Shown here piece by piece: positions 76-18,006 of a DNA stretch of 20,000 bases. The stretch lies in NCBI GenBank assembly GCA_000934665.2, contig JYFJ02001718.1, positions 51,089 to 71,088 on the forward strand, written 5' to 3'. The notes beneath the pieces were generated by a model. It did no database searches, was not told the DNA's origin, and was given only the letters and a program-made list of their open reading frames with translations. This stretch comes from Catajapyx aquilonaris (taxonomy: Eukaryota). Both the position numbers and the translations under genes were made by a program. The first letter of the stretch is position 1. Every line of letters begins with the position of its first letter.

Positions 76-2512
76 CTTGGCCCTCTTTTCCGCGTAAGCC
101 TGCATGTAAAAATTGAAGAAAAAAAGAAATATAATTGGCCCCAGTATGATTACCAAGTATTTTCCCACTAATGAACTGGGACAACCATTGAAGAATGTTT
201 GCGCCTGATGTAATGTTCCGAAGACAAACTGAACCTGCGAAAAAAAGACAACGAAAAACCATTGTATTTTTAACAGAACAAACACTTGTGTTTTATGTTT
301 ACCTTACCATCTGCATGAGAGTTAAGTACCGCTTCCACCATAAGAAGTTCTTGTATCCTAGTGCAGCTATTAAGTAGTAGGTGTACATCACGACATGAAT
401 GAAGGAGTTTATTAAAACTAAAAAGGTCCAGTGCCCCACTGAAAACACAATATAAGTTAATCCTAATACATTGGTCCATCACTTTGAAGGAATTAATACA
501 TAGTTAAATATTCTCGCTCTTAACTTACCTCCAGCAAATCTCGCCATATACCAAACAAAGAATGGCATTGTTGCATGATGTGCAATGTGAAGATTTGTGA
601 CTTGTCCAAAATTTTTGAGCAAATTGAAGAACACCTGCATGGTTATTTAAAAAATCGTGATCAAAAATTCAACCTTGGGAAATGTCCAGACCCACCGTGT
701 CCAGTAAATCCAAATATTTGGCAAAATAATACCACCCAATCGCTTGCACCATCTACAGAGAAAAGAAAGATGTAGAGTACATATTATTAAATCGCAATCT
801 AGCTTAACTGCAATGTAATAAACTTCATGAAATATTGCACACTGTACACTTGGAAAAATCCAAATATCATCGGAAAATACATAATGCACATACCGTCAAA
901 TGGTGGGAGATTGTGCCACTTTTGGAGGTTTTCCTTGCAAGCAAACCAGAGTAATTGATATTATATCAGAACGAATATTTTACACAACATTGCTGCACAT
1001 CTCACCTTTCAGATCATACGTGAAAATAATTTTTATGTACTAAGGGAGGGGAGATATAAATTCTTTTCTGTGCCACAATTTCACCTTCTCATCATATCTG
1101 GACATGGGGCCACGATGACCCACCCCACTGTGGGGGGGGGGGGGAGCTTCAATATCCCATTATTATAATTATTCAATTATTGAGCGAAATTGTTTATAAG
1201 AACTAAACAATGAGCACAATGGAATAAGACAACAATAATATATTGTTACAATAATGGGATGTCAATGGACCTTTGAGGCTTTCTAGTCCTTTGTGATTGA
1301 CGATTTCCGACCATGGGTGTCCAATCTCAAATTTCTTCCCTAGGCAGCCCCTACACACCCTAGAGAAGTCTGTCCAGAATTACAGGAAACACCTTGTTGA
1401 ATCAATACAGTTCTAATATAATAATAATCAGTGCAGGACGACTAAGGGACGTTAAGTGCAGGGCGTTAAGGGATTCAACCGTGCATTTGGTGAAAAAAGC
1501 ATGAAATTTGGTAAGAATGTCCCTGAGAGCATACTCTTCAAATTCAGATATGGCGCCAAGGCCGTTTTCGCCCAGGTGGCCCGTAATTGCGGGTTGGCTA
1601 CCTTGAAGCGAGTTAAAAGTCTTTTCTGAGCGTACTATGCCTCTCAGGCGGATATGTGCCAAACAAACGTTGTAGAGAAACATGCACTCTACAAAAAATT
1701 TCAAGTACCTTTTCCACGCACGGTCCGTATTTTCGTAGCTACAGCGACTTGAAAAAGACTTTTCACTCTCTGAAGGGTAGCCAACCCGCAATTACAGGCC
1801 TCCAGGGCGAAAACTGGCGTGCTGGCGCCATATCTGAATTTGAAGGGTATGCTCTCTGGGACATTTGTAGCAAATTTCATGCTTTTTTCACCAAATGCAC
1901 GGTTGACCCATTATTAGTCCCTTAACGTCCGGACTAAGTGTTATATTCGAGAATAAATATAAATAATAATAAATCAGATACCTTCATAGCTTGCGGGCTC
2001 TGTGAATAATCTGAAGGCTGGCAAGTGAAGCTGTATCCATTGAACCAACCTCCTTGAATGCACTAGAAGAGGAGGAAGAAACATTCAAATCATGGTCATA
2101 TCACCATCATCAGATATTCCCTGAATCCCATCAAACGGACACTGACCAAATAGACAATCCAGACGTTCAGAATCACTTGGAACGTATTGTACACTATTAG
2201 GACTTTTCTGAGCTGGAAAGGTTTCCTGCCAGTCATGAACCTCGGAAGGAGGTAACACACCAAATAAATGTAAACCAGCATGGATCCAAAGACAATAATG
2301 CCACTTTCCATCATCGGCAACGACTTGAAACGTAGGTCTGTAATGGAAAGTGAGCAATATACGTATTATTCACCAAGTAACTATACCAGGTCATACCAGC
2401 ACTGCCCGAGTCCAGGCACTTTTCTACCTTCATTGTCGTAAAATGCATAGTGGTATTGTTGAATCACAAACGTGCCCAAATTAGTTCGATTGTTTATTTC
2501 TGGATGCTCCAT
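76..2512 (-). CDS. Fatty-acyl elongase (ELO/ELOVL family), paralog 1; 3' end truncated by the window edge
   Basis: Exons (minus): 2428-2512, 2147-2337, 1982-2062, 696-752, 529-634, 308-438, 76-234. Introns are GT-AG and exon sizes match the paralogs. Motifs: KYLDLLDT, HIAHH (HxxHH), NSFIHVVMYTYY, LWWKRYLTLMQMVQ. An in-frame upstream ATG exists at 2551. A donor follows exon 7 at 75, with a branch-like CTAAC near the edge, so exon 8 is outside the window. Confidence 0.93.
1260..1397 (-). mobile_element. Possible Tc1/mariner-type terminal-repeat fragment (MITE end) in elongase-1 intron 3
   Basis: The reverse complement begins ACAAGGTGTTTCC...ACTTCTCTAGGGTG, resembling the TACAGGGTGT-type termini of Tc1/mariner-derived MITEs. 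Recognised from memory only; no partner end found. Confidence 0.3.
1430..1940. mobile_element. Non-autonomous inverted-repeat element (MITE/foldback-like), ~500 bp, in elongase-1 intron 3
   Basis: Arms at ~1475-1626 and ~1751-1906 are reverse complements, and 1475-1510 matches 1871-1906 perfectly over 36 bp. Outer GGGCGTTAAGGGA (1461-1473) pairs with TCCCTTAACGTCC (1918-1930). There is a small internal hairpin TGTAGAG..CTCTACA. No transposase and no clear TSD. Confidence 0.8.
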
Positions 2513-2696
2513 TACGTCAAGGTCTGCGACTTGTGCGGATGACTCGTTCATGTAGAATAATGTAAATATTCTGGAGGCGCAAATCACTTTCTTCGGTGTT
2601 GACTGCTGTGTATACACCTGCATTAAGAAGCAGTGCCTTTAATATCTATGAAGCAGTACGTAGAATTACGGATACAACTGTTGGTCGCTGTGTCGT

Positions 2697-2697
<1 letters not shown>

Positions 2698-2748
<51 letters not shown>
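2698..2748. repeat. (ATC)17 microsatellite
   Basis: 17 perfect ATC units, read directly. Confidence 0.97.
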
Positions 2749-4609
2749 TTTATCAATAAAATCAGTGTGGGTGCAAAATTGTACAAGTTTGCATTGCACT
2801 TGTTCTCATGAGCCGAGAAAATTATTTTCGTTGGCCTGTGACTTAGGCCTACTGTTAGTATAAGCTACACTGGTTAACGTGGTTTGATGGCCTGCACTGC
2901 TTAAGAAGATATTACGTGCTGATGCAATACATTAATACAGCTAAAATTTAATACGAAATTGCAAGGCAGAGAAGCCATTATCAAAATTCGATAAAAATAT
3001 AGTTCCATTAAAAACTGCATAAACTGAGATGAGGTTTCTCTTGGGTGACAGCTAATTATCTATTAGAAGCAAATAACTCTGAGATGAACAAAATTGATTT
3101 ACAAATAACTAGAAAAATCTACAATTTACAGAGTATCCTAACAACAATATTGAATAATAACAATAATATAAGATAATTGGGAAATTGTAAAACTTATTAT
3201 TTTAATAATAATAATCTGAACCTGGCTGATCACTCTTGTAGGCCTACTTACCACTTAGCGACTGCAGTAGCCTAATAATACTCTTGCACTATTGCAGATG
3301 ACAATAATAGTGCACATATGAGAGCCGTAACTGTGACTGAGGCTGCAACAGTGTAGTCGCATATAGGCGTCTCTCTTTTTCTCACATATTCTTTTCTCCT
3401 CCCGAAAGTTTTTGAGGAAGTAATTATTACACCATTCATCAATCGGATCTACTGTTGATTTCATAAGTCATGTTCAAGCAAAATAGACTATTTCGTAATT
3501 TTCTTTTCATGATGAAATGGCTACCTCCATATCGTTTATGGGAATTCGTATGTTACGGCATACCTATACTGAATTTTTATCTTGCCTCTTTTAGTATTTG
3601 ACGTCATCTGAGCCAATAACGTTGTTACATCAGAATGTTAAAAAAGTCATAATTAATCCAGGTGATTTTTTATTGTGAAATGCAAGGCTGTGTTAGTGTC
3701 GCTTTTTCTATAGGACGTCATTCAGAAGCTTATCAACCAATCATGTATTTGTTGTTGAACTTTTTGCTTATTTCTTCAACCACAAAGCATTACGACACTC
3801 AAGATAAAGGCACCGTACTCTCTTCCGTTGTTGAGAAATACCTAATGGGACTTCTGTAATATAGTAGTTACATAACAATTAGTGAAAAATTCCCCTCAAA
3901 ACTTCAAAAAAGAGCGAAAATTATGCACACCCGTCACACATATCCATATGCATTATTCTTCATTGATATGTTATTATTGTTGGTTCATTGTTTCCAACAA
4001 TCAATGACAAGCAATAGCCGGTCGTAACGCAATTTAACCCCCTTCTGCTTTGCGTATTGATTGGTCACATACCCAACACTTCAGATTGCATTGATGTTTT
4101 TCAGCAAAATCGATGGAGTGTGTTTGTTAATCAAATAAGGCTATTTAGTGATAGAATCATGTCCAATTATTGTTTGAAGTGTGTACTGCTGACCTTAGAA
4201 TTTGCGCTAATAATACCTATTTCATATGGCCACAAAATCATGTGATCGGTCAATTTTTTGTACGTTTTATTTTATTTTCTTCATCAACTTGGATGAAGGA
4301 TGGGTAGACTGACCAATCAATATTAAGTTGGTGAATATCTTTGCAAAATAAGGTTAGTAAAGCACTGGAAGAGTTGGTACTTGGTAGCTATGACTGATGG
4401 GGTTGTTGCTCATACAATCAGAGAAGAATGATTCCTTCCTCTTGTTCTGATTGACAGGCCAAAAAAGGAGATGATGAACCCATTTGTGGGAGGGAGATTA
4501 TTTTGGGGATGCCTGCTCAGGATTGTCGAGATGCAGAGCCAGAAAGGTAGGAGGACTGGACTATAAAATGTTTCATATCATTGCGAAGTGTCCCCCTAAA
4601 AGGGCTCTG

Positions 4610-4654
4610 CCCCAACAATGGGGTTACTTAAATAAAATAAAATAAAATAAAATA
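4610..4654 (+). repeat. Stem-loop plus (TAAAA)n tail, possibly the 3' end of a decayed non-LTR retroelement
   Basis: CCCCA-ACAA-TGGGG hairpin (4610-4623) followed by TAAATAAAATAAAATAAAATAAAATA. The retroelement origin is inferred. Confidence 0.35.
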
Positions 4655-6044
4655 TTACAAAGTAGTGTTTATAAAATTGTGATTGCGATGATTATTTGAA
4701 CTTGTATTTCATTATCCCATGCTGGTGATTTGTCACTGTGTATTTTCTTACAAGGAATTTGATGGCACATATGATTTTGTATTCGGTATATGTTGATTTT
4801 TTTGCCACGTTACAGAATGAAAGCTGTGTTGACCAAACACACGTGTGTGTCCAGATTTGTTCCAGGGACACACCAGATATAAGACGAGATTGCAATGAGA
4901 AGGCTCAAAATTACCACCCCTTAAAAACCAGTAACAGAATTAGGATTTCTCAAATTTCTTTGCTACAATGTTTTAGTATCAGGATAATGAACATAAACCA
5001 AGAATATTATTCAATATTGGGCACACCATCTGGTACAAATCTGGCTGAACTGACATGGAATGACCCATATAAGAAACATCTAGAGAGGCAGCTACCTGAT
5101 ACAGCAAAACTGTATGAGCAACATTGCTAAATCAGAGGTATTATGGCAGAAAGTCAGCATGTTTGCAAAAATCTTGCTCACCTTAGTGTACAATATCATA
5201 ACGAGGTTTTTCTGTGTTGTTTTACTTGTTCCATTATAATACTAACTTGTAAAATTAAATGCCGTCTGCAATATTATCTTGCACGCTTACAAAATGTTAA
5301 TGAAGTTTTTCCCTCTGAGGAAAACAATCTGTATAATATCAGTCCTTGAAACAATTACAGTTTAAAGTCATTACTTTGTGTGTCTCATTGTGATTTTGAA
5401 CGCTGACGTTTTTTGACAAAATATTTATGCAACTATTCAGTAAGTTTGACTGCAGCATCCAGCTGTAAACGTAACCTACTATATTACGCAGTTGATTGAT
5501 TGTGGAAGAACCATCATACTTGCCTTTTTTTTCCACTTCCTGGGTTCGCATGTATTGACGTGGGTGATTTCTTTGTAGTATGTGCCAACATTCTTCGGAA
5601 ACCACAAAATAATGATGATTGCGGCAGAAATGAATTATGTTGCTCTTGCCCAACATCCCATTGCAGTATACCACTTAAAATCATCAACTGATTTTTTTTT
5701 GTTATGCGATAATTCTGTTTGTGTAATAATTGGATTTGTTCTCCAGTTGCAGGTCAAGTGATACACCATATAAGTCAGGCACTTCAGATCATCATTTGCT
5801 TGTTGCAAACTCTCCGTATGTCTCAGCATCTCCAAGTTGTTGAAATCACTCAACAGTAAGTATGGCTGCAGAGTCATCTTCCAGAAACCTTAATTTCGCC
5901 ATTAATTTTTGGTAATGTCTGTAGGAGCGCCATCATATTTGAAAGCTGGCTTATTTTTCATTTTATTTCACTTGGTCAATAAAATTTAATGTAAGTGTCA
6001 TAATGTCATAATGCAAATGTTATTTTTATATTCTTTTAATAGAT

Positions 6045-7968
6045 ATGGGCTACAAAAGTGATGTTGGCGTGGCCAACAGTCCAAGCACTAATGGAACAGC
6101 TGGAGTAAAATCTGAGTAAGAGTAATTATAATTTTACTACTATTACTGGTACTACTAACACAAGAAATGCACTGATAATAAGAATATTGTATTGTACAGG
6201 CGCAGTCTATCAGGAGAAAAGCCCAAAGTGACCTTCACTGGAGTCCTGGATGAAACAGACACGGATGTAACCTCTGAGGTGTTGGAATATGTGGCGAAAG
6301 AAGAGGCGGAAAAGAATTACCCTGTTGAAATTGTGTGGGGGAATGTTTACAAATTTGTGGTTTTGCATATCTTCGCCTTTTGCGGATTGTATAATGTCGT
6401 GACAGGAAGGGTTTCAGGAAAGCATATCCTTGCAAGTAAGTATCTAGAACAACTATGGTGTCCTACTAACTTAATATTCATTGCAAGGTGCACTTTAAAT
6501 AAAGTAATGGTGTAATGAGGAGTTTTAGAATCAAAGTTGTGAATCTTGCAATTGACAAATTGATTTCACTTCGCGAAACCCTCCCGCCCTTACATTACAA
6601 AAATTGTTAAGCTACACATAAATCAAATATTTGTTGATGTAGTAAACAATCCATATTCTTCCTACCCTCATCTTGGACCGTAGAGCTTGACAGTGTACCA
6701 TCAACAATACCCCATGTTCATAATTATTACGCTTAAAAAGTGTATATGAATTTATTTTAATTAATAACAATGATATTCTCTGCGAAGTTGTCCTATACAG
6801 TTTCATGCTCAACTTTGGCATCGCTGGAGGAGCGCACAGACTATGGGCCCACAAGGCATACAAAGCGAAACGTGTACTTCAGATCTTCTTGCTCTATCTG
6901 CAGACCGCTGCCGGACAGGTAATGCAGGTCCAATGCAGGTGGGAATGTCAGCACACATGTCCCTTTTGTCTGAATCACCTTTCAGAACTCCCTGTACGAT
7001 TGGGTTCGGGATCACCGTATGCACCACAAGTTCACCGAGACCAATGCAGACCCACACAGCATGAAGAGAGGCTTCTTCTTTGCTCACATGGGTTGGCTCA
7101 TGTGCAAGAAGCATCCGGACCTCAAGGCGAAGGGAAAGATGATTGACATGAGCGACCTGGAGAAAGATCCGATTGTTATGTGGCAACACAGGTTTGTAGG
7201 AACCAGGCTTTAATTTTTAGAAATGATATTAATTAGTAATTATGTTTGGGTGCTTCGGTGCTACAATTTTATAGTACACTTTAAGGCAGCTACAGTCAGC
7301 AATTTATTATAATTCCATGATGTTCCAGCATTTCATTCATTTCATTTACAGGAACTATGTGATGCTCTTCTACATCATTGGTCTTGTGATTCCAGTACTA
7401 GTATTGAGGGTGCTCACCCATGAAACGTGGCTATACATTTTCACAGCAACACTAACGAGATATGCAGTGGGACTTCATATTACCTGGCTCATCAACAGCT
7501 ATGCCCATGCTTTTGGAGACAGGCCGTATGACAAGTAAGTGGTCTAAGTGTGCATGTGCGACCAATTAAACACTCAACGCATCAGTTATGTGTCGAGTCG
7601 AATTTTGAACTCATTTCTACCCCTCCAGGGATGTACAGGCTACGAATTCGATATTCATGGGATACTTGGGAGTTGGAGAAGGCTTCCACAACTACCACCA
7701 CGTGTTTCCATGGGATTACAGAGCAGCTGAACTTTACTTTTATAAAGGGTCCAATCTGACTGGTCTGATGATCGATGCTTTTGCTAAACTGGGTCTGGCA
7801 TACGACCTGAAGACTGTGGATCAGAACATGATAAAGAACAGGGTTCTGAGAACTGGAGATGGAACTCACCACGTTTGGGGCTGGGGAGACAAGGACATTC
7901 CCAAACTCCATGTCGAGGCTACCATCACACTCAATGGGAAAGAAAGCCAAACCCACAAAAAGGATTGA
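6045..7968 (+). CDS. Integral-membrane acyl-CoA desaturase (SCD/Delta9-Delta11-like family), ~388 aa
   Basis: Exons: 6045-6115, 6200-6435, 6788-6918, 6986-7191, 7352-7534, 7629-7968 (1167 nt, in frame). Three His boxes: HRLWAH, HRMHH, HNYHH. Also TGVL, IVWGNV, ADPH..RGFFFAHMGWL, RPYDK, GEGFHNYHHVFPWDY, RTGDGTH..WGWGDKD. The first coding exon and the exon-3 acceptor (AAG at 6787) are the least certain parts. Confidence 0.95.
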
Positions 7969-8151
7969 GATTTAAAAAAAAAAAAATGCAGGATAGCAAT
8001 ATGACCAGGTTATTTACCAGCCTTTCATGACTCTCCTTGTTTCCTTTTAAATGTTGACGGTATTCAATATATATATTTTTTTGCATTTTTGTACGTTCAC
8101 TCATTTGATATGATATCATGTCACATGTGCGTGAACGGATTAAAACAGATC

Positions 8152-8190
8152 AATAAATCTACTTGGTGATGGGCATGTTGATGCAATAAA
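8152..8190 (+). terminator. Candidate polyadenylation signals of the desaturase
   Basis: AATAAA at 8152-8157 and 8185-8190, ~190-220 nt after the stop, followed by a T-rich tract. Confidence 0.5.
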
Positions 8191-8623
8191 AACTTGTCCA
8201 TTACAATGTTTTTTTTCAATTCTCGGTGAAAATTTCAAGATGGCTAAATATATAAAGTTGCTTGTTGTGTAATTGAATGGCTTTGATTGGAAAGATTACA
8301 GTCACATGAGATATTTAACCAAATATGACTTGGAAATAGGGCAGTTTTTAAAGCGGGATTCAGTGATGAGCTTTCTGGTACTTGTGAAATGTCTTCTTTA
8401 ATAATAATTAATCATTATCCTGTATATGCTGATCTATACAAATGGGAATATTGGCGGCAATATCAAATACACTTTGCTATGAAGTCATTATGATTTAATT
8501 TATAACAAATTTTTCTCGGGCATCAGAACTTATCCATCTGCTACAAGTACAGGACAAAACCAATTCCTGCTTGCATGACCTTGAGTAATTGTTCCATCGA
8601 ATGAACCAAACTACATGAAAGTG

Positions 8624-10209
8624 TTATCCTTGCAAGCAAGTGAACTCCTTTATGTGGGATTGTACTTTTGCTATTGACACCTGAAAATAAGTTCAGAAAT
8701 ATATAAACTACATGCAATTTTCACTAGAATACTGGAAAATCTGCAATGTATAAGAGTACTTACGCTGCTATTTCTCCTTCCTTTGTAGGCTTGTGAGTAG
8801 AAATTATAAAAAAGCATCAGCAGGCTAGGTCCCAATGGGATGGTCAAAATTCTCGTAAATCTGGGATAGTTGCATTCGTTGAAGAACAATTGATATTCGT
8901 GAATAGCCAAGATAATGAACTGAGCCTGAAATTAAATAGTTTAATTATGGTAAATATGATCGCCGATTGTAGAAGACAACGTTGTCTTACCATTTGCATA
9001 ATAGTCAGATACTTTTTCCACCACAAGTATTTCTGGTAGCCTAATGCAGCCAGCAAGTAATACATGTACATTACTACGTGGACAAAAGAGTTGCACAGAA
9101 TCACCAATGTCCAGTGCCCACCTGTTAATGAAATTAATTGTACCACATGCAACACAGTCACAATATGCATGATAGTATTTTTGTCCAAGGAATATACTTA
9201 CCACCTATAAATCTTATTGTATACCACACGAAAAATGGCATCAACATGTGATGAAACATGTGAAGAAAACTGACTTGCCTGTAACTCTTCCGCAGTACAA
9301 AGAATGCCTAGGGTGTGAAAAATATGTCAGAATGTAGTATACCGTGTCTTTTGAAATACAGATTTAAACCGTACCGTGTCCAACCAATCAACAAACTTGG
9401 CAAATAGGTACCACCAACATGCATCCAACATCTGAAAACAGGCGTAATTAGTTTAAGAACACTGTTCGACAAGGAAGCATTTGCTCGGGTTATGATGTGT
9501 GTTTCAATACAGAATATACAATACAGAAAATACTTATTGAAACACACATCATAACCCCTAGAAAATGTTTCCTTGTCGAACAGTGGAATTGATCATAAGT
9601 ACAGATTCATAATGCAAGGGTCTGGCATACACAATTAAATATTGACCTTTTTCAAAACTACTTGACCCTGGTAAATAATGGTATAGCATGTACAGTTATT
9701 ACCGCCATTGCTTTCGGATTCCTGGAGAAATCTCCTGGTTGGCACCTGAAACTGTATCCATTGAACCATCCTCCTCTGACACACTGCAAATGATCATTTT
9801 GTTCTGAACATGTTTAATCATCCTTTGGACTTCATGTTCTCACCAGGATTATAATCCATATGTTCAAGGCTACTTGAAATGCGTTGTAGGCCATGATGAC
9901 TCTTTTCATCTGGAAAGGCTGTCGATCCACCATGAGCTTGGGAAGTGCATAACATGAGAGGAGCAAGTAGCCCAAGGTTGACCACACGATCAGGGAAGTG
10001 CTTCCCATCAAGGGCCACTCCATCATGCGAGGATCTGAAATGTACTGGCCATTGAAGCCTAATAGGTGTCAAAATAAACAATGTGATGCCTACATGGCAG
10101 AACACTTACCTCTATTTTTGTTTATGAGGAAATGGTACTGCCGAGTCATATATGGAACTAAAGAGGTAATATTCTCGCTTGTAATGTCACTCATGATGGC
10201 GAAGTTCAT
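8624..10209 (-). CDS. Fatty-acyl elongase (ELO/ELOVL family), paralog 2, ~294 aa
   Basis: Exons (minus): 10110-10209 (alternative ATG 10194), 9844-10034, 9703-9783, 9375-9431, 9202-9307, 8991-9121, 8764-8925, 8624-8680. Motifs: [53 protein letters not shown]. Ends ...KEFTCLQG*. Confidence 0.95.
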
Positions 10210-10211
10210 GA

Positions 10212-10622
10212 CTGTTGAGATTTAAAAATTTATTAGATTTATATGAGCGTATTTGAGCGATCAATATTGAACATTTGTAACGTAAGTCAAGAAACACAAT
10301 CATTTTTCCGTAGGTTTGAGTTATGTCGAAGTCCTGTAATATGTTGTCTCTGTATACTCAGCCATCACATTATGGACACAAGCACTGACCACACACTTGG
10401 ACTACAACGTAAGTAAATACCACAGAAAAATAATGTTAATAACATGAAAATTCTCACTCTTCAAAATGGTAAAATTGTCGTTTTCATTAGATCAAGCTAT
10501 GCAAACGACCCTTTTTCTTACCTTCTGAACTTCCAACAAAATGTTACCAACTGGACCCAGCTATAGGAGCAGTATTGCTCAGCACTGCTCTTGAGCATGA
10601 TATACTTTGCTGAACTTATATA
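10212..10622 (-). promoter_or_regulatory. Candidate TATA box, 5'UTR exon and 5'UTR intron of elongase 2
   Basis: Minus-strand TATATAA at 10622-10616, donor AAG|GTAAGA at 10521, and acceptor ...TCTCAACAG| ending at 10212, 2 nt before the ATG. Confidence 0.45.
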
Positions 10623-12659
10623 ACTTATACGAAGCGTGAAAAATTCATACTTTTCTCGTGTTATTATAACTAATTTTTAGTGTAGTTGCAACATTATCCC
10701 AGGAATTATTTTACTAGGGTCTTTGCGGGTGTGATATGGGCGGGATTGGATGTTTCCTGAGAAAAGTACGTATTTAAAAAAAAAGTTTGCGAAATATGCA
10801 CTGATAAAGTACACTCAATTGACATCATTTCCATTTGAGAAAATACCATGTGTGACGCAAGGATCAAACTAGTGACCTCAGAAGGGATACATTGTGGCCA
10901 CCACGTCTTTCCTGGAATACCCTTGGTTTTGAACCTCGAATAGATATGGGCTTGGTATCATATACATGGGACACTCCTGGGAGTATTTTTTGTTGCTTCA
11001 GTAGTAAAGAGCATGTCACTGTACAGTGCAAAACGAAGAATATATTAGTAAGTTCGTATAGAGATACAGTAGTGTGCATTTGCAATGGGAACTGACTTAC
11101 ACATAACAGTAGGCCTACTGTTAAGAAGCAGTAGTAATAATATCCCTGAGACGAGCCTGTGTGAAAGTGACGCTGGAGTTAAGTGTCTGGCACGCAAACA
11201 ACGAACAATATAATTATTATTTCGGTAGAAGGCTTGCATAATTATTATGATGGAAGTTTTCCAGTGTACGCGGAGTCAGAGGTTGGGAAAGGTTATGGGT
11301 AGGTTAAATAAAGGTTACAAATTTATGGCGCAGTAGGAACCGTAGGAATGTGCAATGATTTCTGCAAAGTGCAAATTTTCTAAACAGATCTGTTGGCCAC
11401 TACATAAGATAATATGACTGGTATAAGCTACAATTTTGTAATTTCAGTATATATACACTGTATATCACAGTATTATTGTTCCAAAGTTTTCAGATGTAAT
11501 GGAACCAAATAATATTATCAGTTTCTTGAGAATATATTTTCTCGATTACACAATCATGTTCATGATACCTTCAACAAGTAACACCGTATAAGATTATGCT
11601 GTAGCCCTATATATTACGCTACGCATAAAAATCTGTTTGTAAGTTTAGACCTAAATTGAAAGCTGTGTATCATTGCGGCTACGTCGAAATTTGCGATTTT
11701 TTTTTGGAAATGCCATTCAGTCGAGTGACACTTAGTTGGGCATGACATCATAATTTAAAATAAATATTTATGGAGAGAATATATGTACACATATTTCCGC
11801 ACGTCCTCAATAACTTTTAGCAAATTGCATTTAATTGTTATAACTGATACGCAGCAGCTTAATAAGAAGAGGCTTAGTTAAAAATCGCTGAAACATTCAC
11901 TTCAATTTTGAAACACTGCATAGCATGCGAAAGAACAATCGTATACAGGTGCAGACATGGCGTGAGAGGAAAATTCACTGTTATTAAATTACTGGCCGCA
12001 ATTGCTCTTGAGCTCTTCAACATGAAATCATTTTAATTGAAATGTTGCGCGTAATTACGTGAATGGCGCCACTTGAAAGAATTTGTTGAAAGAGCTCTGT
12101 CTGGGTGTTGATAAATGGCGATTGTACTCTCATGACTTACTGTACATGAACAGACATCAGTTGCAGATTAAATATTTTTCGTTCACCTTCTTATACTTGG
12201 TACAATAATAAATTATGTAACTTATGCCTATTATTAAGTACACATGATAATGGTTTTGAATAGAATCTTTCTGGGGCTATAATATAGCATTAAATATCAG
12301 TCCCGAAAAATGTAAAATAATAATTGCATCATTGTGCAACAAGTTTCTCGGAAGAAAGTTTGGATACGGCTTAAAGGAATGACATTGGACTAGGACAAGT
12401 GTTATTAATATTTCGTACTGAAAAGTATTTTTGCATCTCAGCAGTTCACGCAGGAGAAGATATTAAGTTATATCAAGAGCTATGATAGACCTCTATACCA
12501 TTTTAAGAGCTTAATTCCGGGTTCCTATTGTTGTCCTTCGAACACTTAAATATGCAATTATTTTCTCAGACTGGAAGTGACCTTCTTTAAAACATGTCAA
12601 TTAATTATGACCTCAGCTTTAAATGACGCAGCACTTTGGAATAATTGTTTTTTTTTGTC

Positions 12660-12693
12660 TGTGTGTATGTATGTGTGTGTGTGTGTTTGTGTG
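12660..12693. repeat. Imperfect (TG)n microsatellite
   Basis: TGTGTGTATGTATGTGTGTGTGTGTGTTTGTGTG, read directly. Confidence 0.8.
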
Positions 12694-12971
12694 GACTGGC
12701 GAATTTTTCTGTGAAACATACAATATCCAATAAAAGTATTTTGGGATGCGAATTATACAGTATACGGTTTATTATAGATAATTGCATTAAAATATATGTC
12801 CATGTAATGACTAAGGCTGTCACGTCTAAAAATGGAAACAGGCTACTACTTATGATGGAAAATTGATTTCATGATTGACTTTGTCAACTGTATTGTATAG
12901 TCAACGCCTCCGAGGATGTTGAACCGTTTCAGCTGCATTCTGTCTGGCCAGTAGTATCTTCATGTGCCTCA

Positions 12972-14956
12972 TTATGTGCGCAAACAAGCCATCTTTTTCC
13001 CATATAGATATACCATTTTAGAGATTCCGATATCCTGAAAAAATGAGTCAGTGTCATCGTAAAGATAAAATACTATATTCTTGTATCAAAGTGCAATTAT
13101 GTCTAAGTTATTTTCCAAGGAAAAAAAGGAGTAGTGACTTTCATCCAAACACGTTGAATATAATTATTTACCTTGCTGCTTTTTCGCTTGTAGGACTCTC
13201 TATAAAAATTGTAGAAGAGTGATAGGATGGTTACCCCCAACGGTAGGGCCAAAATTCTCGTAAATTTGGGATAATTGCATTCGATGAAATACAACTGGAA
13301 TTCATGGACCATCAATAATATGAACTGACCCTGTAGAGAGAAAAAAAAGTAGTGAGTAAATAACATAAGACTGTTAGGGCAATAAATAAATTGGAGATAT
13401 TTTTTTTTAAAAAAAGGGCATCCGTCCGAGAAGTCATTTAAGGAAAAGTAAAATAACTGCCCATTACGTTATTTAGGTCAGAAAAGTTTTGAGAGACATT
13501 CCTTAGTTTTCACAAAATTATTTGGATTGTCTATGAATAAATTTTGAGAATAAAATATTAAGCTTACATTATAATTTGATGAAATTTAATAAAATTGGAA
13601 GGTATATTATTCTGAATTATGTTATTGAATTATTATTTTAAAGTAACATTCAATCGATAATGTTGGGTTCTCTTCCACGTGGAATAAGAGTGAAAATAGG
13701 CTTAAAATAATTATTCAGGTGCAATACTGAGTCACAAATTACGTCACCATTTGCAGTGCAGTCAGGTACTTTTTCCACCACAAATATTTGTGGTAGCCCA
13801 GTCCAGCCAGTAAGTAGTAAGTGTACATGAGGATGTGAATGAAGGAGTTGCATATGATCAGTAGTGTCCAATGTCCACCTGAAAAAGTAAATGCCGATAA
13901 ATTCGCATTAGATTGAAGATAAGTACAGTTATCTAGTACAGCAGACAGCATATGACTTTACCTCCGATGAATCTGACGACATACCACGCCCAAAATGGCG
14001 TAGATATATGGTGGTACACATGCAGGAAGCTGACTTGCCCATAGCTCTTTCTCAGCACAAAAAATACCTAATCATCAGATATGTCCATATTAGAGCTCAC
14101 TCATTACGATGTACGTCGTAGAAACTGTTGCGCAATGAACTCGAGTCCTTACCGTGTCTAGCCAATCCACATATTTGGCGAGGAGGTACCACCAGCATGC
14201 ATACACCATCTGTAAGAAGAGTTACTTGAAGTACTGTATAATAAGCTACTGCCCAAGTTGAAGGTCCCATCAGTGGGAACGAAGAAACGTTGATTGATTT
14301 TGTCTCATTGCCACATTGTGTATAAATAGTGTGATAATATGAACAGCATTTCCACCTACCCTCATCGCCTTCGGATTCCTGGAGAAATCACTTGGTTGGC
14401 ACATGAAACTGTAACCGTTGAACCATCCTCCTTGGACACACTGCAAATCAGATCAGAAATCATGGCTCAAACTGACAACACCCCCAAAAAATGTGCTAAC
14501 CAGAGCAACAATCCAGGAATTCAACAGCACTTGAAACGCGTTGTAGACCATCAGCGTCTTCTGAAGTTTCATAGGTTGCTTCTTGGTCATGTATCTCGGT
14601 AGGGCAAAGCACACTGCAAACAGGTAAACCATGGCTGGTCCCAAGATGACAAAGGCACTTGCCATCAAAGGCAGCTCCAAGAAGCGAGGATCTAAAATGA
14701 TTTCAAAATCAAGTCAGTAAATGACCAAATTACATAGAGGCATATTTCCTCCGCGAAAACCAGTTTCACCAATATGCAATGTGACAATATTTGATTTCAG
14801 ACATAATATTATGTTAGATTCTTTTAGTGCTGTCAGACTTATACAATAGTTTAAAATACGCACAGTACCTTCATTGTCGTATAAGATGTAGTCATATTGC
14901 TTTATGACAAACGGAACCAATGTTGTCTCATTACTCGCTGCTGTCATGTACTCCAT
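12972..14956 (-). CDS. Fatty-acyl elongase (ELO/ELOVL family), paralog 3, 291 aa
   Basis: Exons (minus): 14869-14956, 14501-14691, 14360-14440, 14153-14209, 13962-14067, 13748-13878, 13172-13330, 12972-13034 (876 nt). Motifs: [56 protein letters not shown]. Ends ...[10 protein letters not shown] strong 5'UTR acceptor ends at 15016. Confidence 0.95.
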
Positions 14957-16608
14957 TATTATGACTCAAACTGCACCGTATCTTTCTAGGTACTGAACCA
15001 GAGGCAAAGAAGTGTCTGGATAAAAAAGAAAACTGTAATACCCTGAAAAAATGTTGCAAGGTAGAATCTATTATAAACGTTCGAGTACATCTTGAGTAGT
15101 AAATTATACAATTAACGGCTGACGTAAAATGAAATGGCACCTCTTTTTTCGGAATGCGTTTTTATTGTGGGCGGAGTTGGTATGTGTACAAAGCTAATAT
15201 GGGTGTGTTATGCGGTATGTGATCGTGACTTTATTTGTGGGAATTTTTAAGCCAAAATTGCATTCCTGGCTGTGAGATGAGAGATGAAAAAAAATGCAAT
15301 ATAAAGAGGAAGTACAAAATTTTAGAGTAGATGAACGCTGAGAAGGCCGTCCTTGCTTAACCTGATGATGCAATTAGCGCTATGATTGGTGATATGGGAA
15401 TTATTCTTTTCAGAGAACAATAATAATTATTTTAAGCAGTTGCTTCGGAACGTTTCCTCATATCAATACAGGTAAGTATTAACTGCTAATCTTAGGCCAA
15501 TCATTCATCAATAGAGTGAACAGTGAAGGGCTCTAATTTTACGATATGTGCAATATACACAATATCAGAAACTTCTCTTGGAATTACTAAGACTAGATGG
15601 GAATATTATTACATTATTTTGTAGAACTGTAAGCTCTAAAATGGCATGCAGAAACACTGCAACTGTGATTTTTTTTTCTTTAAAAACATGACGTAAATTC
15701 GGACATGCAAAACCTACGTCAAAGGCTGATGGAAAGATTCATGATTCACTGTTGAAGTTCCGGGTATTGCAGACTTGCGAAAAAATTTGCTCTTGACCAG
15801 TAACTTAGTGTTTTTGCTAACTTATTTCATTGATATCATTTATTAGGAAACTCCATTTCAAATACTTACAGCTTTTAATTTTTAAAAAAACATTTGCCAT
15901 CATATTTTGCTGTAACATTTTCATTCATGGCTGTATCAGCGAATGTTACGTGAATGGACCGAATTATTGCCATAGTGCGCAATTGGTATTCATTAATTAA
16001 ATCGCTCTAATTGGGGAATGTCGTTGTAATTAAACTATTCCCATCAATACCGGGCGTGTAACAGGGCGAACGTTAGTCAAAAAGAGAGACAGGGAAGACA
16101 ACTTTCCATACGCGGGATATACCGTACAGTACCATCTCTTCATAAAATAATAACATATTTAACACTGTATCGTCAACAATATATTATTACAAAGGTATAA
16201 TACTCGTATTGAGGACGCATCTTGTACAGTACAGTTATACCTCATACATTCGGTATAAAACTTACAGATGTCATTATCTTGAAGCAATAATTATATTATA
16301 AGCTCTTATACTGTGTAGGATTTTAACAGAGATTTTAACAGATCCTTGAAGGGGTATTCCCATCAACAAAGTTTTCGTGCATTTACAGTTGTTCGTGCAG
16401 GTGTGGTGAAATTGCAACATGCAGAAACACGTCAGAATAATGATGTAGTGTCACGGAAAGCTTAAAATGATTAGTTTAAAATGATTAGTTATTCTCATTT
16501 AGCAAATCCTACTGTTGCTAAACTCGTGTTTTTTTCGCAATACATCTCATCCCATCCATTAGAGGTCTACATAATATTTTTGATAACTTGACCCATATGT
16601 TATGATCT

Positions 16609-18006
16609 TCACGTTTGTAGACAAACAAACTTTCTTCCCTGTTGATAAGCCATTTCCACCGCTGTCATTTTCTGAAAATGGTCGGCATTAGTTCCATTAA
16701 AACGTCCTAATAATTTAACACATTTTCACTATTACCTTTAAATCTTTTTCCAAGTATGCCTTCATGTAGAAATTGACAAATAGGATAATTATTGATGGCC
16801 CCAAGGGAAGTGTCAAAAATTTTGTCAACTGCGCAGCGGAGCATTCATTGAAAAACGCCTGCAGCTGATGCATTATTATGACGACGAACTGAATCTGAAC
16901 AAAACGACATTTTTGTATCAATTGTATGTAGTCTCAGCTATAAAATAGTGCATACTGAGCACAATGTAAGTTTGTTACCATCTGCATGAGCGTTAAGTAT
17001 TTCTTCCACCAGAGGAAATTCTTGTATCCCAGAGCAGCTAACAGGTAATAAGTGTACATCAGTACATGAATGAAGGAGTTGCATAAAATGACGAAGGTCC
17101 AGTGTCCTCCTGGAAGTTCAATCAACTATTTACATAACTTGGTCCATTATTGTCGAACCAAGTTCATTATATTTGTCAGCTTACCTCCCGTGAACCTGCA
17201 GATATACCACAACCAAAATGGCATCGATATGTGATGATAAAGGTGAAGAAAGCTGACTTGTCGGAAACTCTTTCGTAATACGAAGAATACCTGCAGACTG
17301 CAAATGTCAGTGCCAAAATATTTAGCTCTAGTTTTTTCATACCCACCGTATCAAGGAAATCCAAATATTTGGAGATAAAATACCACCAAACAGCTTCCAC
17401 CATCTGCAGGCAAAGGGAGTAAATTTAAGTATGAAAAAATTTGAACGGTCATTATCACGAGTCAATCTGGTTTGTAAATAGCACATCACCATCAATGCTT
17501 TAGAGCTTCCTGAGAAGTCTCCAGGCTGGCACGTGAAGCTGTAGCCGTTGAACCAACCTCCTTGGACACACTGTACACGAAAAAAAAACCGTGTCACCAC
17601 ATCATGCTGCTAGAGCATTCAAAAACATGGACTGACCAGGTAAATAATCCACACGTTAAGAATCACTTGAAACTGGTTGTAGACCATAAGCACTACTCGG
17701 AGCTTGAAGGGTTTCCGCCCCATCATGAACTTCGGAAGAATGTAACACACCAGAAAAAAATACGTCACTAACGATCCAACAATAAGGGTCACACTTCCCA
17801 TCATCGGCAGCTTTGTGTAACGAGGGTCTGTAATGAAGAAAAAAAATTGCGACATAACAACCACGCACCATTACATGAAATTAAACTGTTGCATTATTCC
17901 AGTACTTTGGATTGCACTCACCTTCATTCGCATAGAGCAGATAATTGTACTGCTGAATAACGTAACTGACCAAATTGGTAGAATTTTCTGTTTCCATTAC
18001 TTCCAT
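16609..18006 (-). CDS. Fatty-acyl elongase (ELO/ELOVL family), paralog 4, 290 aa
   Basis: Exons (minus): 17922-18006, 17637-17827, 17490-17570, 17347-17403, 17185-17290, 16979-17109, 16736-16894, 16609-16671 (873 nt). Motifs: [56 protein letters not shown]. Ends ...GRKFVCLQT*. Confidence 0.95.

Follow-up and report, generated by a model that had tools for sequence, protein, structure and literature searches.

Four elongase genes and an opposite-strand acyl-CoA desaturase gene lie adjacent within 18 kb of Catajapyx aquilonaris DNA

A stretch of 20,000 nucleotides from Catajapyx aquilonaris (assembly GCA_000934665.2, contig JYFJ02001718.1, positions 51,089 to 71,088), referred to here as the window, was found to harbour five genes from two non-homologous enzyme families, adjacent to each other within 18 kb. 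Four are elongase genes of the ELO/ELOVL type, named E1 to E4 and all located on the minus strand; the fifth is an acyl-CoA desaturase gene located on the plus strand between E1 and E2. The five genes are all intact and evolve under purifying selection, and the gene content of the window is far beyond chance. We lean towards the explanation that the locus is a tandem array of elongases, of the type of the Drosophila eloF cluster, in which a dispersed desaturase copy has become lodged. The enzymes are plausibly complementary; that they constitute a selected or co-regulated module, as the original prediction proposed, is unproven.

The gene models were built by homology-guided spliced alignment, with a splice-aware aligner, of arthropod elongases and desaturases that had been retrieved with two exon queries, and the splice sites were checked. 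A Pfam scan was performed on 21 stop-to-stop open reading frame (ORF) pieces, of which 11 matched the ELO family (PF01151). Of these, seven exceeded the gathering score (27 bits) and fell into four minus-strand groups, with at least one per group (E1, 42.8 bits for exon 2; E2, 55.6 and 38.7 bits; E3, 49.3 and 38.8 bits; E4, 54.7 and 37.2 bits). Two plus-strand pieces matched FA_desaturase (PF00487) with 18.3 and 18.6 bits, which is under the gathering score of 29.7 for that family. When the spliced models were compared with hidden Markov models (HMMs) of the retrieved elongases and desaturases, the elongases scored 301 (E1), 338 (E2), 329 (E3) and 313 bits (E4), and the desaturase scored 455 bits. 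All 29 introns of the five models were of the GT..AG type, and no internal stop or frame disruption was present. The short GT..AG introns and a GC content of approximately 33-44% indicate eukaryotic sequence. The presence of four intact elongases and one intact desaturase, as first proposed, is thus borne out by Pfam, by the spliced models, by the HMMs, and by the PDB matches and catalytic motifs presented below.

Each elongase gene comprises seven coding exons, with intron positions and phases identical in all four copies, and the encoded core is 270-271 aa long. E1 (10-2512) has exons at 2428-2512, 2147-2337, 1982-2062, 696-752, 529-634, 308-438 and 76-234, with a read-through stop at 10-12; its internal exon boundaries were concordant across spliced alignments to five reference elongases. 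The exons of E2 (8671-10194) are at 10110-10194, 9844-10034, 9703-9783, 9375-9431, 9202-9307, 8991-9121 and 8764-8925, with a read-through stop at 8671-8673 or, alternatively, a mini-exon at 8624-8681. E3 (13103-14956) has exons at 14869-14956, 14501-14691, 14360-14440, 14153-14209, 13962-14067, 13748-13878 and 13172-13330, and a read-through stop at 13103-13105, and E4 (16715-18006) has exons at 17922-18006, 17637-17827, 17490-17570, 17347-17403, 17185-17290, 16979-17109 and 16736-16894, and a read-through stop at 16715-16717.

The HxxHH histidine box is catalytic in ELO enzymes, and it was intact in all four copies: HIAHH in E1, HMFHH in E2, HVYHH in E3 and HLYHH in E4, each preceded by a leucine (LHIAHH, LHMFHH, LHVYHH and LHLYHH, respectively). 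Further boxes of the family are known as KxxE/DxxDT, NxxxHxxMYxYY and TxxQxxQ; the alignment of E1 to E4 contained AKY/FxDxLDT, NSFxHxxMYxYY and LTxxQM in every copy, and an N-x-T/S sequon was present in elongase exon 1. Exons of E4 matched the structure of human ELOVL7 (6y7f) with E values of 9e-11 and 2.7e-6, with FLHVFHH and NxxxHxxMYxYY aligned. From these features, the array is predicted to consist of four functional ELO/ELOVL genes, encoding condensing enzymes (3-ketoacyl-CoA synthases) of the elongation cycle in the endoplasmic reticulum (ER).

The four elongases formed one clade in a maximum likelihood tree (IQ-TREE, 40 rows), with a support of 100/100 and a stem of 2.05, and the same clade was recovered with FastTree (111 rows, SH support 99). 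The branching order in the IQ-TREE analysis was E2,(E3,(E1,E4)), and the pairing of E1 with E4 had a support of 100/99. Amino acid identity between copies was 51-63%, with 63% for E1/E4, and the proportion of synonymous differences (pS) among the elongases was 0.63-0.86, which is saturated. The ratio of non-synonymous to synonymous change (dN/dS) was 0.18 for E1/E4 and 0.13 for E2/E3, the two closest pairs. As the synonymous sites are saturated, the dN/dS is low and the copies form a single clade, the elongases are an old, constrained, lineage-specific tandem family. One clade, one common strand (minus) and one common gene structure were thus found for the four copies of this tandem array.

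This family is distant from the proteins available for comparison. The five best retrieved proteins for each elongase copy were only 41-51% identical to it. When E4 exon 2 was compared by HMMER with 1.84 billion representative proteins, it had 265 matches with E ≤ 0.001, and the best 150 of these 265 were at most 53% identical; among the matches listed, 14 were of full length, and none of these was closer than 47%. A word-index search with the same exon returned four candidates, none of them significant. Those of the best matches that carry a name, for the elongases as well as for the desaturase, were all insect proteins.

E1 and E4, the youngest pair, stand at the two outer positions of the array and enclose the desaturase, E2 and E3. 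Either the array grew otherwise than by simple duplication of each copy into the adjacent position, or else E1 and E4 exchanged sequence. E1 is the most divergent copy (end branch 0.94). Its exon 5 (529-634) departs from that of the three paralogues beside the histidine box, with FFNLLKNFGQVTNLHIAHH (FFNLLKN..QVTNLH) in E1 versus FFVLRKS..QVSFLHxxHH in the others. The divergence of this exon, together with the longest branch, may reflect a changed substrate preference or relaxed constraint.

The 3' ends of the elongase genes are ambiguous. In all four copies a GTAA follows straight after a conserved stretch of lysine and basic residues at the end of exon 7 (positions 76, 8764, 13172 and 16736), and the read-through tails beyond it are 6-30 codons long and unconserved. 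This GTAA is either the donor of a conserved last intron that is followed by a mini-exon, or it includes the valine codon of a K-V motif; a K-V motif is also C-terminal in the reference elongases P0011, P0014 and P0021. Candidate 3' mini-exons were found in E2 and E3 only and were not conserved. Position 76, where the span given in the original prediction begins, is such a donor-like site rather than a stop; on read-through, E1 stops at 10-12.

Intron 3 of E1 (1,229 nt) is the sole intron longer than 1 kb, and its length is due to a foldback. This near-perfect foldback (1470-1910, 441 nt) has arms at 1475-1558 and 1823-1906 (94% complementary) and at 1557-1625 and 1753-1821 (84% complementary), and a predicted DNA folding energy of -167 kcal/mol (z of -25 versus shuffled sequences). 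It could be a transposon of the miniature inverted-repeat (MITE) or foldback kind, or else a locus that yields a hairpin RNA. Intron 3 of E2 contains a shorter inverted repeat (9460-9489 and 9556-9585; 30 nt, 90% complementary, 66 nt apart).

The desaturase gene (6045-7968) encodes a 388 aa protein of the SCD ('First') type in six exons (6045-6115, 6200-6435, 6788-6918, 6986-7191, 7352-7534 and 7629-7968, the last ending in TGA), separated by introns of 84, 352, 67, 160 and 94 nt. The model was derived from spliced alignment to the retrieved proteins P0124, P0135 and P0142, and the introns imply that the gene is not a retrocopy. Four of its exons matched SCD1 structures, with E values from 1.2e-29 to 4e-8 (4zyo, 1.2e-29; 4ymk, 4e-18). 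The three histidine boxes HRLWAH, HRMHH and HNYHH, plus NSYAH, aligned with HRLWSH, HRAHH, HNYHH and NSAAH of SCD1 (4zyo/4ymk), so that the motifs HRLWxH, HRxHH, NSxxH and HNYHH are shared. As with ELOVL7 (6y7f), it is the catalytic regions of SCD1 (mouse/human 4ymk, 4zyo) to which the exons align; these are matches of single exons, from which chain length and double-bond position are not readable.

In the tree, the desaturase was sister to the unnamed protein P0124 (59.5% identity over 383 aa, SH support 100, stem 0.8). The next 14 best desaturase references were 46-51% identical, and the named ones among them were all from insects, delta-9-like enzymes included. On its sequence, the gene is a divergent paralogue that groups with P0124 only, and not the delta-9 housekeeping orthologue. 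Two bases upstream of the ATG of the desaturase (6036-6047) there is an AG that follows a T-rich run. It suggests an intron in the 5' untranslated region, in which case transcription of the desaturase would start further upstream, in the spacer shared with E1.

The desaturase is head-to-head with E1 and tail-to-tail with E2, as originally described. The divergent spacer between the start codons of E1 and the desaturase (2513-6044) is 3,532 bp long and is not a compact bidirectional promoter; it contains an (ATC)17 microsatellite at 2698-2748 and no recognisable gene. The convergent spacer between the desaturase and E2 (7969-8670) contains candidate polyadenylation signals for both genes, at 8139, 8152 and 8185 on the plus strand for the desaturase and at 8499 and 8402 on the minus strand for E2. 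This part of the earlier description needs amending: the distance between the two stops is 702 bp when E2 is read through, and the 655 bp given previously applies only with the unverified mini-exon at 8624-8681.

Pfam, HMM and Rfam scans agreed with the earlier statement that the window contains no other recognisable gene. Of the 64 ORFs of 50 aa or more (62 outside the genes and two in E1 intron 3), none reached a Pfam gathering score. When HMMs of the reference proteins were run against every ORF of 18 aa or more (756 in total), only 24 elongase exon ORFs (six per gene) and five desaturase exon ORFs were matched, and the remainder had E values of 0.16 or higher. As only the known exons were matched, there are no relic copies; neither Pfam nor the reference HMMs recognised pseudogenes or further genes in the window, and the HMM scan of the 756 ORFs found no second desaturase within the 20 kb. 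No Rfam match was obtained in the window, and it contains no fatty-acyl reductase, CYP4G or FAS gene. All seven direct-repeat families corresponded to elongase exons or to the (ATC) microsatellite. A (TG)n microsatellite is located at 12656-12693, in the interval between E2 and E3.

Signs of shared control were sought in the non-coding sequence. The five 800-bp upstream regions shared no 8-10-mers, compared with a mean of 0-0.8 in shuffled sequences, in what is a low-power test on five short sequences. No conserved non-coding repeat linking the genes was found among the seven direct-repeat families. These results, with the length of the divergent spacer, do not support a co-regulated and co-inherited module, and no result contradicts one. 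Linkage elsewhere was assessed by a metagenome scan with desaturase exon 6, which returned 50 loci (159,930 bases) with identities of at most 56%, 49 of which contained a desaturase. Elongases were present in none of the 50 loci; as most of these were contigs of 1-4 kb from distant or unknown organisms, the test is weak.

The frequency with which the two families would become neighbours at random was estimated with a model of approximately 15 ELO genes, approximately 11 First Desaturases and an assumed total of approximately 13,000 genes, with random placement. The ELO count was that reported for a weevil in the available part of PMC11297609, and the desaturase count was based on the 170 First Desaturases across 15 insects in the available part of PMC4298175. 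By this rough estimate, a random desaturase-elongase neighbour pair would be present in some 1-3% of insect genomes. Such cross-family adjacency is uncommon, yet it is not significant given that very many windows were scanned, and it is expected somewhere.

A tight elongase-desaturase cluster in an animal was not described in the full-text literature searched, which lies mostly outside subscription journals and excludes supplements. Nor was one described in the accessible portions of PMC11545969, PMC8484720, PMC9898505, PMC3112091, PMC11297609, 10.1101/2023.05.29.542378, 10.1101/2021.10.18.464893, PMC12044895 and PMC4298175. In plant and fungal metabolic clusters, adjacent genes for non-homologous enzymes have a demonstrated shared pathway and are co-expressed, and usually at least three enzyme classes are involved. 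The present locus resembles them in having adjacent non-homologous enzyme genes that possibly serve one pathway, but differs in that only two families are present. In vertebrates, SCD and ELOVL3 may be loosely linked on one chromosome arm. This linkage is absent from the accessible portion of PMC3112091 and was not used as evidence.

The closest parallel for the elongases is in Drosophila, where five elongase genes (eloF, CG8534, CG9458, CG9459 and CG16904) form a conserved cluster of approximately 10 kb that arose by tandem duplication, according to the part of PMC12044895 available. In D. prolongata, the same source reports that all five change together in expression, being concertedly up-regulated in males, and shared cis-regulation was proposed. 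The present array is similar in that several tandem ELO paralogues with a conserved exon-intron structure are contained in one block of 10-20 kb. It is unlike the Drosophila cluster, described there as consisting of elongases only, in having an opposite-strand desaturase between copies 1 and 2; furthermore, its paralogues are much older, with saturated synonymous sites, and they are known from sequence alone.

On Nasonia chromosome 1, eight elo genes, 13 far genes, cyp4g1 and CG14688 co-localise and overlap a quantitative trait locus (QTL) for cuticular hydrocarbons (CHCs), as stated in the accessible part of 10.1101/2021.10.18.464893. Several non-homologous families of the hydrocarbon pathway are brought together in that region, which is comparable to the two enzyme families adjacent in the window. 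The Nasonia region, as that part presents it, is pericentromeric, of low recombination and defined at the scale of a linkage map, which is far coarser than 18 kb; no desaturase is named in it, and its fatty-acyl reductase and CYP4G genes have no counterpart in the window. Insect First Desaturases have a core cluster of their own (subfamilies Desat A1-E), and lineage-specific copies are dispersed elsewhere (PMC4298175, in the part available). The desaturase of the window is similar to these dispersed copies, being of the First type (delta-9/delta-11 class) with three histidine boxes. It differs from the core cluster so described in that it stands alone among elongases and groups only with the unnamed P0124.

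The enzymatic part of the original prediction is supported, in that the four elongases and the acyl-CoA desaturase are all ER enzymes that act on acyl-CoAs. The elongases would add C2 units to acyl-CoAs by way of the histidine of the HxxHH box, and the desaturase would create a first double bond in a saturated acyl-CoA, with a di-iron centre and with cytochrome b5 as a separate protein. Between them, the two kinds of enzyme could provide very-long-chain acyl-CoAs that are monounsaturated. In the explanation that we favour, the arrangement would have originated by tandem duplication of the elongases and by the placement of a dispersed desaturase paralogue among them, either by chance or driven by rearrangement. 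The promoters would then be separate, one per gene, and the locus would not be a biosynthetic cluster under selection and joint regulation; whatever pathway link there is would stem from the general biochemistry of elongases and desaturases rather than from their linkage.

The main alternative is a metabolic cluster of two families, in which selection keeps the desaturase and the four elongases together, under common enhancers or in one chromatin domain; acting in sequence on acyl-CoAs, they would fix the unsaturation and chain length of one lineage-specific class of product, for instance alkenes, wax esters or a contact pheromone. We consider this unlikely, while still a real contender. It would account for two non-homologous and sequential enzyme families within 18 kb with no other gene between them, for the intact and constrained state of all five genes, for the divergent, lineage-specific nature of both the desaturase and the elongases, and for an array that is ancient yet contiguous. 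Drosophila elongase clusters can show concerted regulation (PMC12044895), and several CHC-pathway families are co-localised in Nasonia (10.1101/2021.10.18.464893), in both cases according to the parts of these sources available. However, no shared upstream 8-10-mers and no linking non-coding repeat were found, the divergent spacer is 3.5 kb long, and the window lacks a reductase, CYP4G or FAS gene. The lack of an elongase in all 50 desaturase metagenome loci is a further point against it, though a weak one with mostly short sequences of unknown organisms, adjacency by chance is plausible in view of how many windows were scanned, and no animal precedent was found in the literature searched. The strongest form of this explanation, in which the desaturase is held in the ancient array by selection for both co-inheritance and shared regulation, as a single 18-kb 'chemotype' locus, is doubtful, and less probable than clustering in the broader sense.

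A housekeeping or nutritional lipid locus, in which the enzymes serve membrane or storage lipids (sphingolipids, waterproofing, reserves) with no specialised product and the linkage is irrelevant, appears slightly more doubtful again. Both families include housekeeping members, the catalytic motifs are canonical, and the role in cuticular hydrocarbons is an assumption. Housekeeping orthologues are normally well conserved, so the low identities count against this explanation: 46-51% between the desaturase and the next 14 references, delta-9-like enzymes included, with a long stem; 41-51% between the elongases and the best retrieved proteins; and at most 53% for E4 exon 2 among the best 150 of 265 matches. 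It would be a considerable surprise if the arrangement were an artefact, either a chimera of unlinked loci created by the assembly or a locus in which some copies are unexpressed pseudogenes. The ambiguous 3' ends of the elongases would fit decay, but all 29 introns are GT..AG with undisturbed frames, the dN/dS of the elongases is well below 1, the GC content varies from 0.33 to 0.44 per 1-kb window with no abrupt break, and the window sequence examined contained no N.

Several points weigh against an elongase array with an incidental desaturase, the explanation to which we lean. The desaturase and the elongases are all fast-evolving paralogues, lineage-specific and on long stems, of the kind usually recruited for specialised lipids, for example cuticular hydrocarbons or pheromones; the two families are also biochemically sequential. 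The array is old, yet no foreign gene interrupts it over 18 kb. Moreover, the youngest pair, E1/E4, brackets the desaturase along with E2 and E3, so the position of the desaturase within the array may be of long standing. A comparison of five short sequences for shared k-mers has little power, and incidental adjacency is a default assumption rather than a demonstrated fact.

Clustering of non-homologous genes of a pathway is frequent in fungi and plants and rare in animals. If the cluster were real, one 18-kb locus would encode the double bond as well as the range of chain lengths in a hydrocarbon, wax or pheromone blend specific to the species. If the linkage were conserved and the genes co-expressed, the locus would be a compact and tractable case of selection clustering the genes for lipid signals in arthropods, and a direct pointer to the genes that control unsaturation and chain length in this species. 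As it stands, the locus is an annotated array of elongases whose neighbour is unusual, and a source of candidate genes for work on cuticular and pheromone lipids in this lineage.

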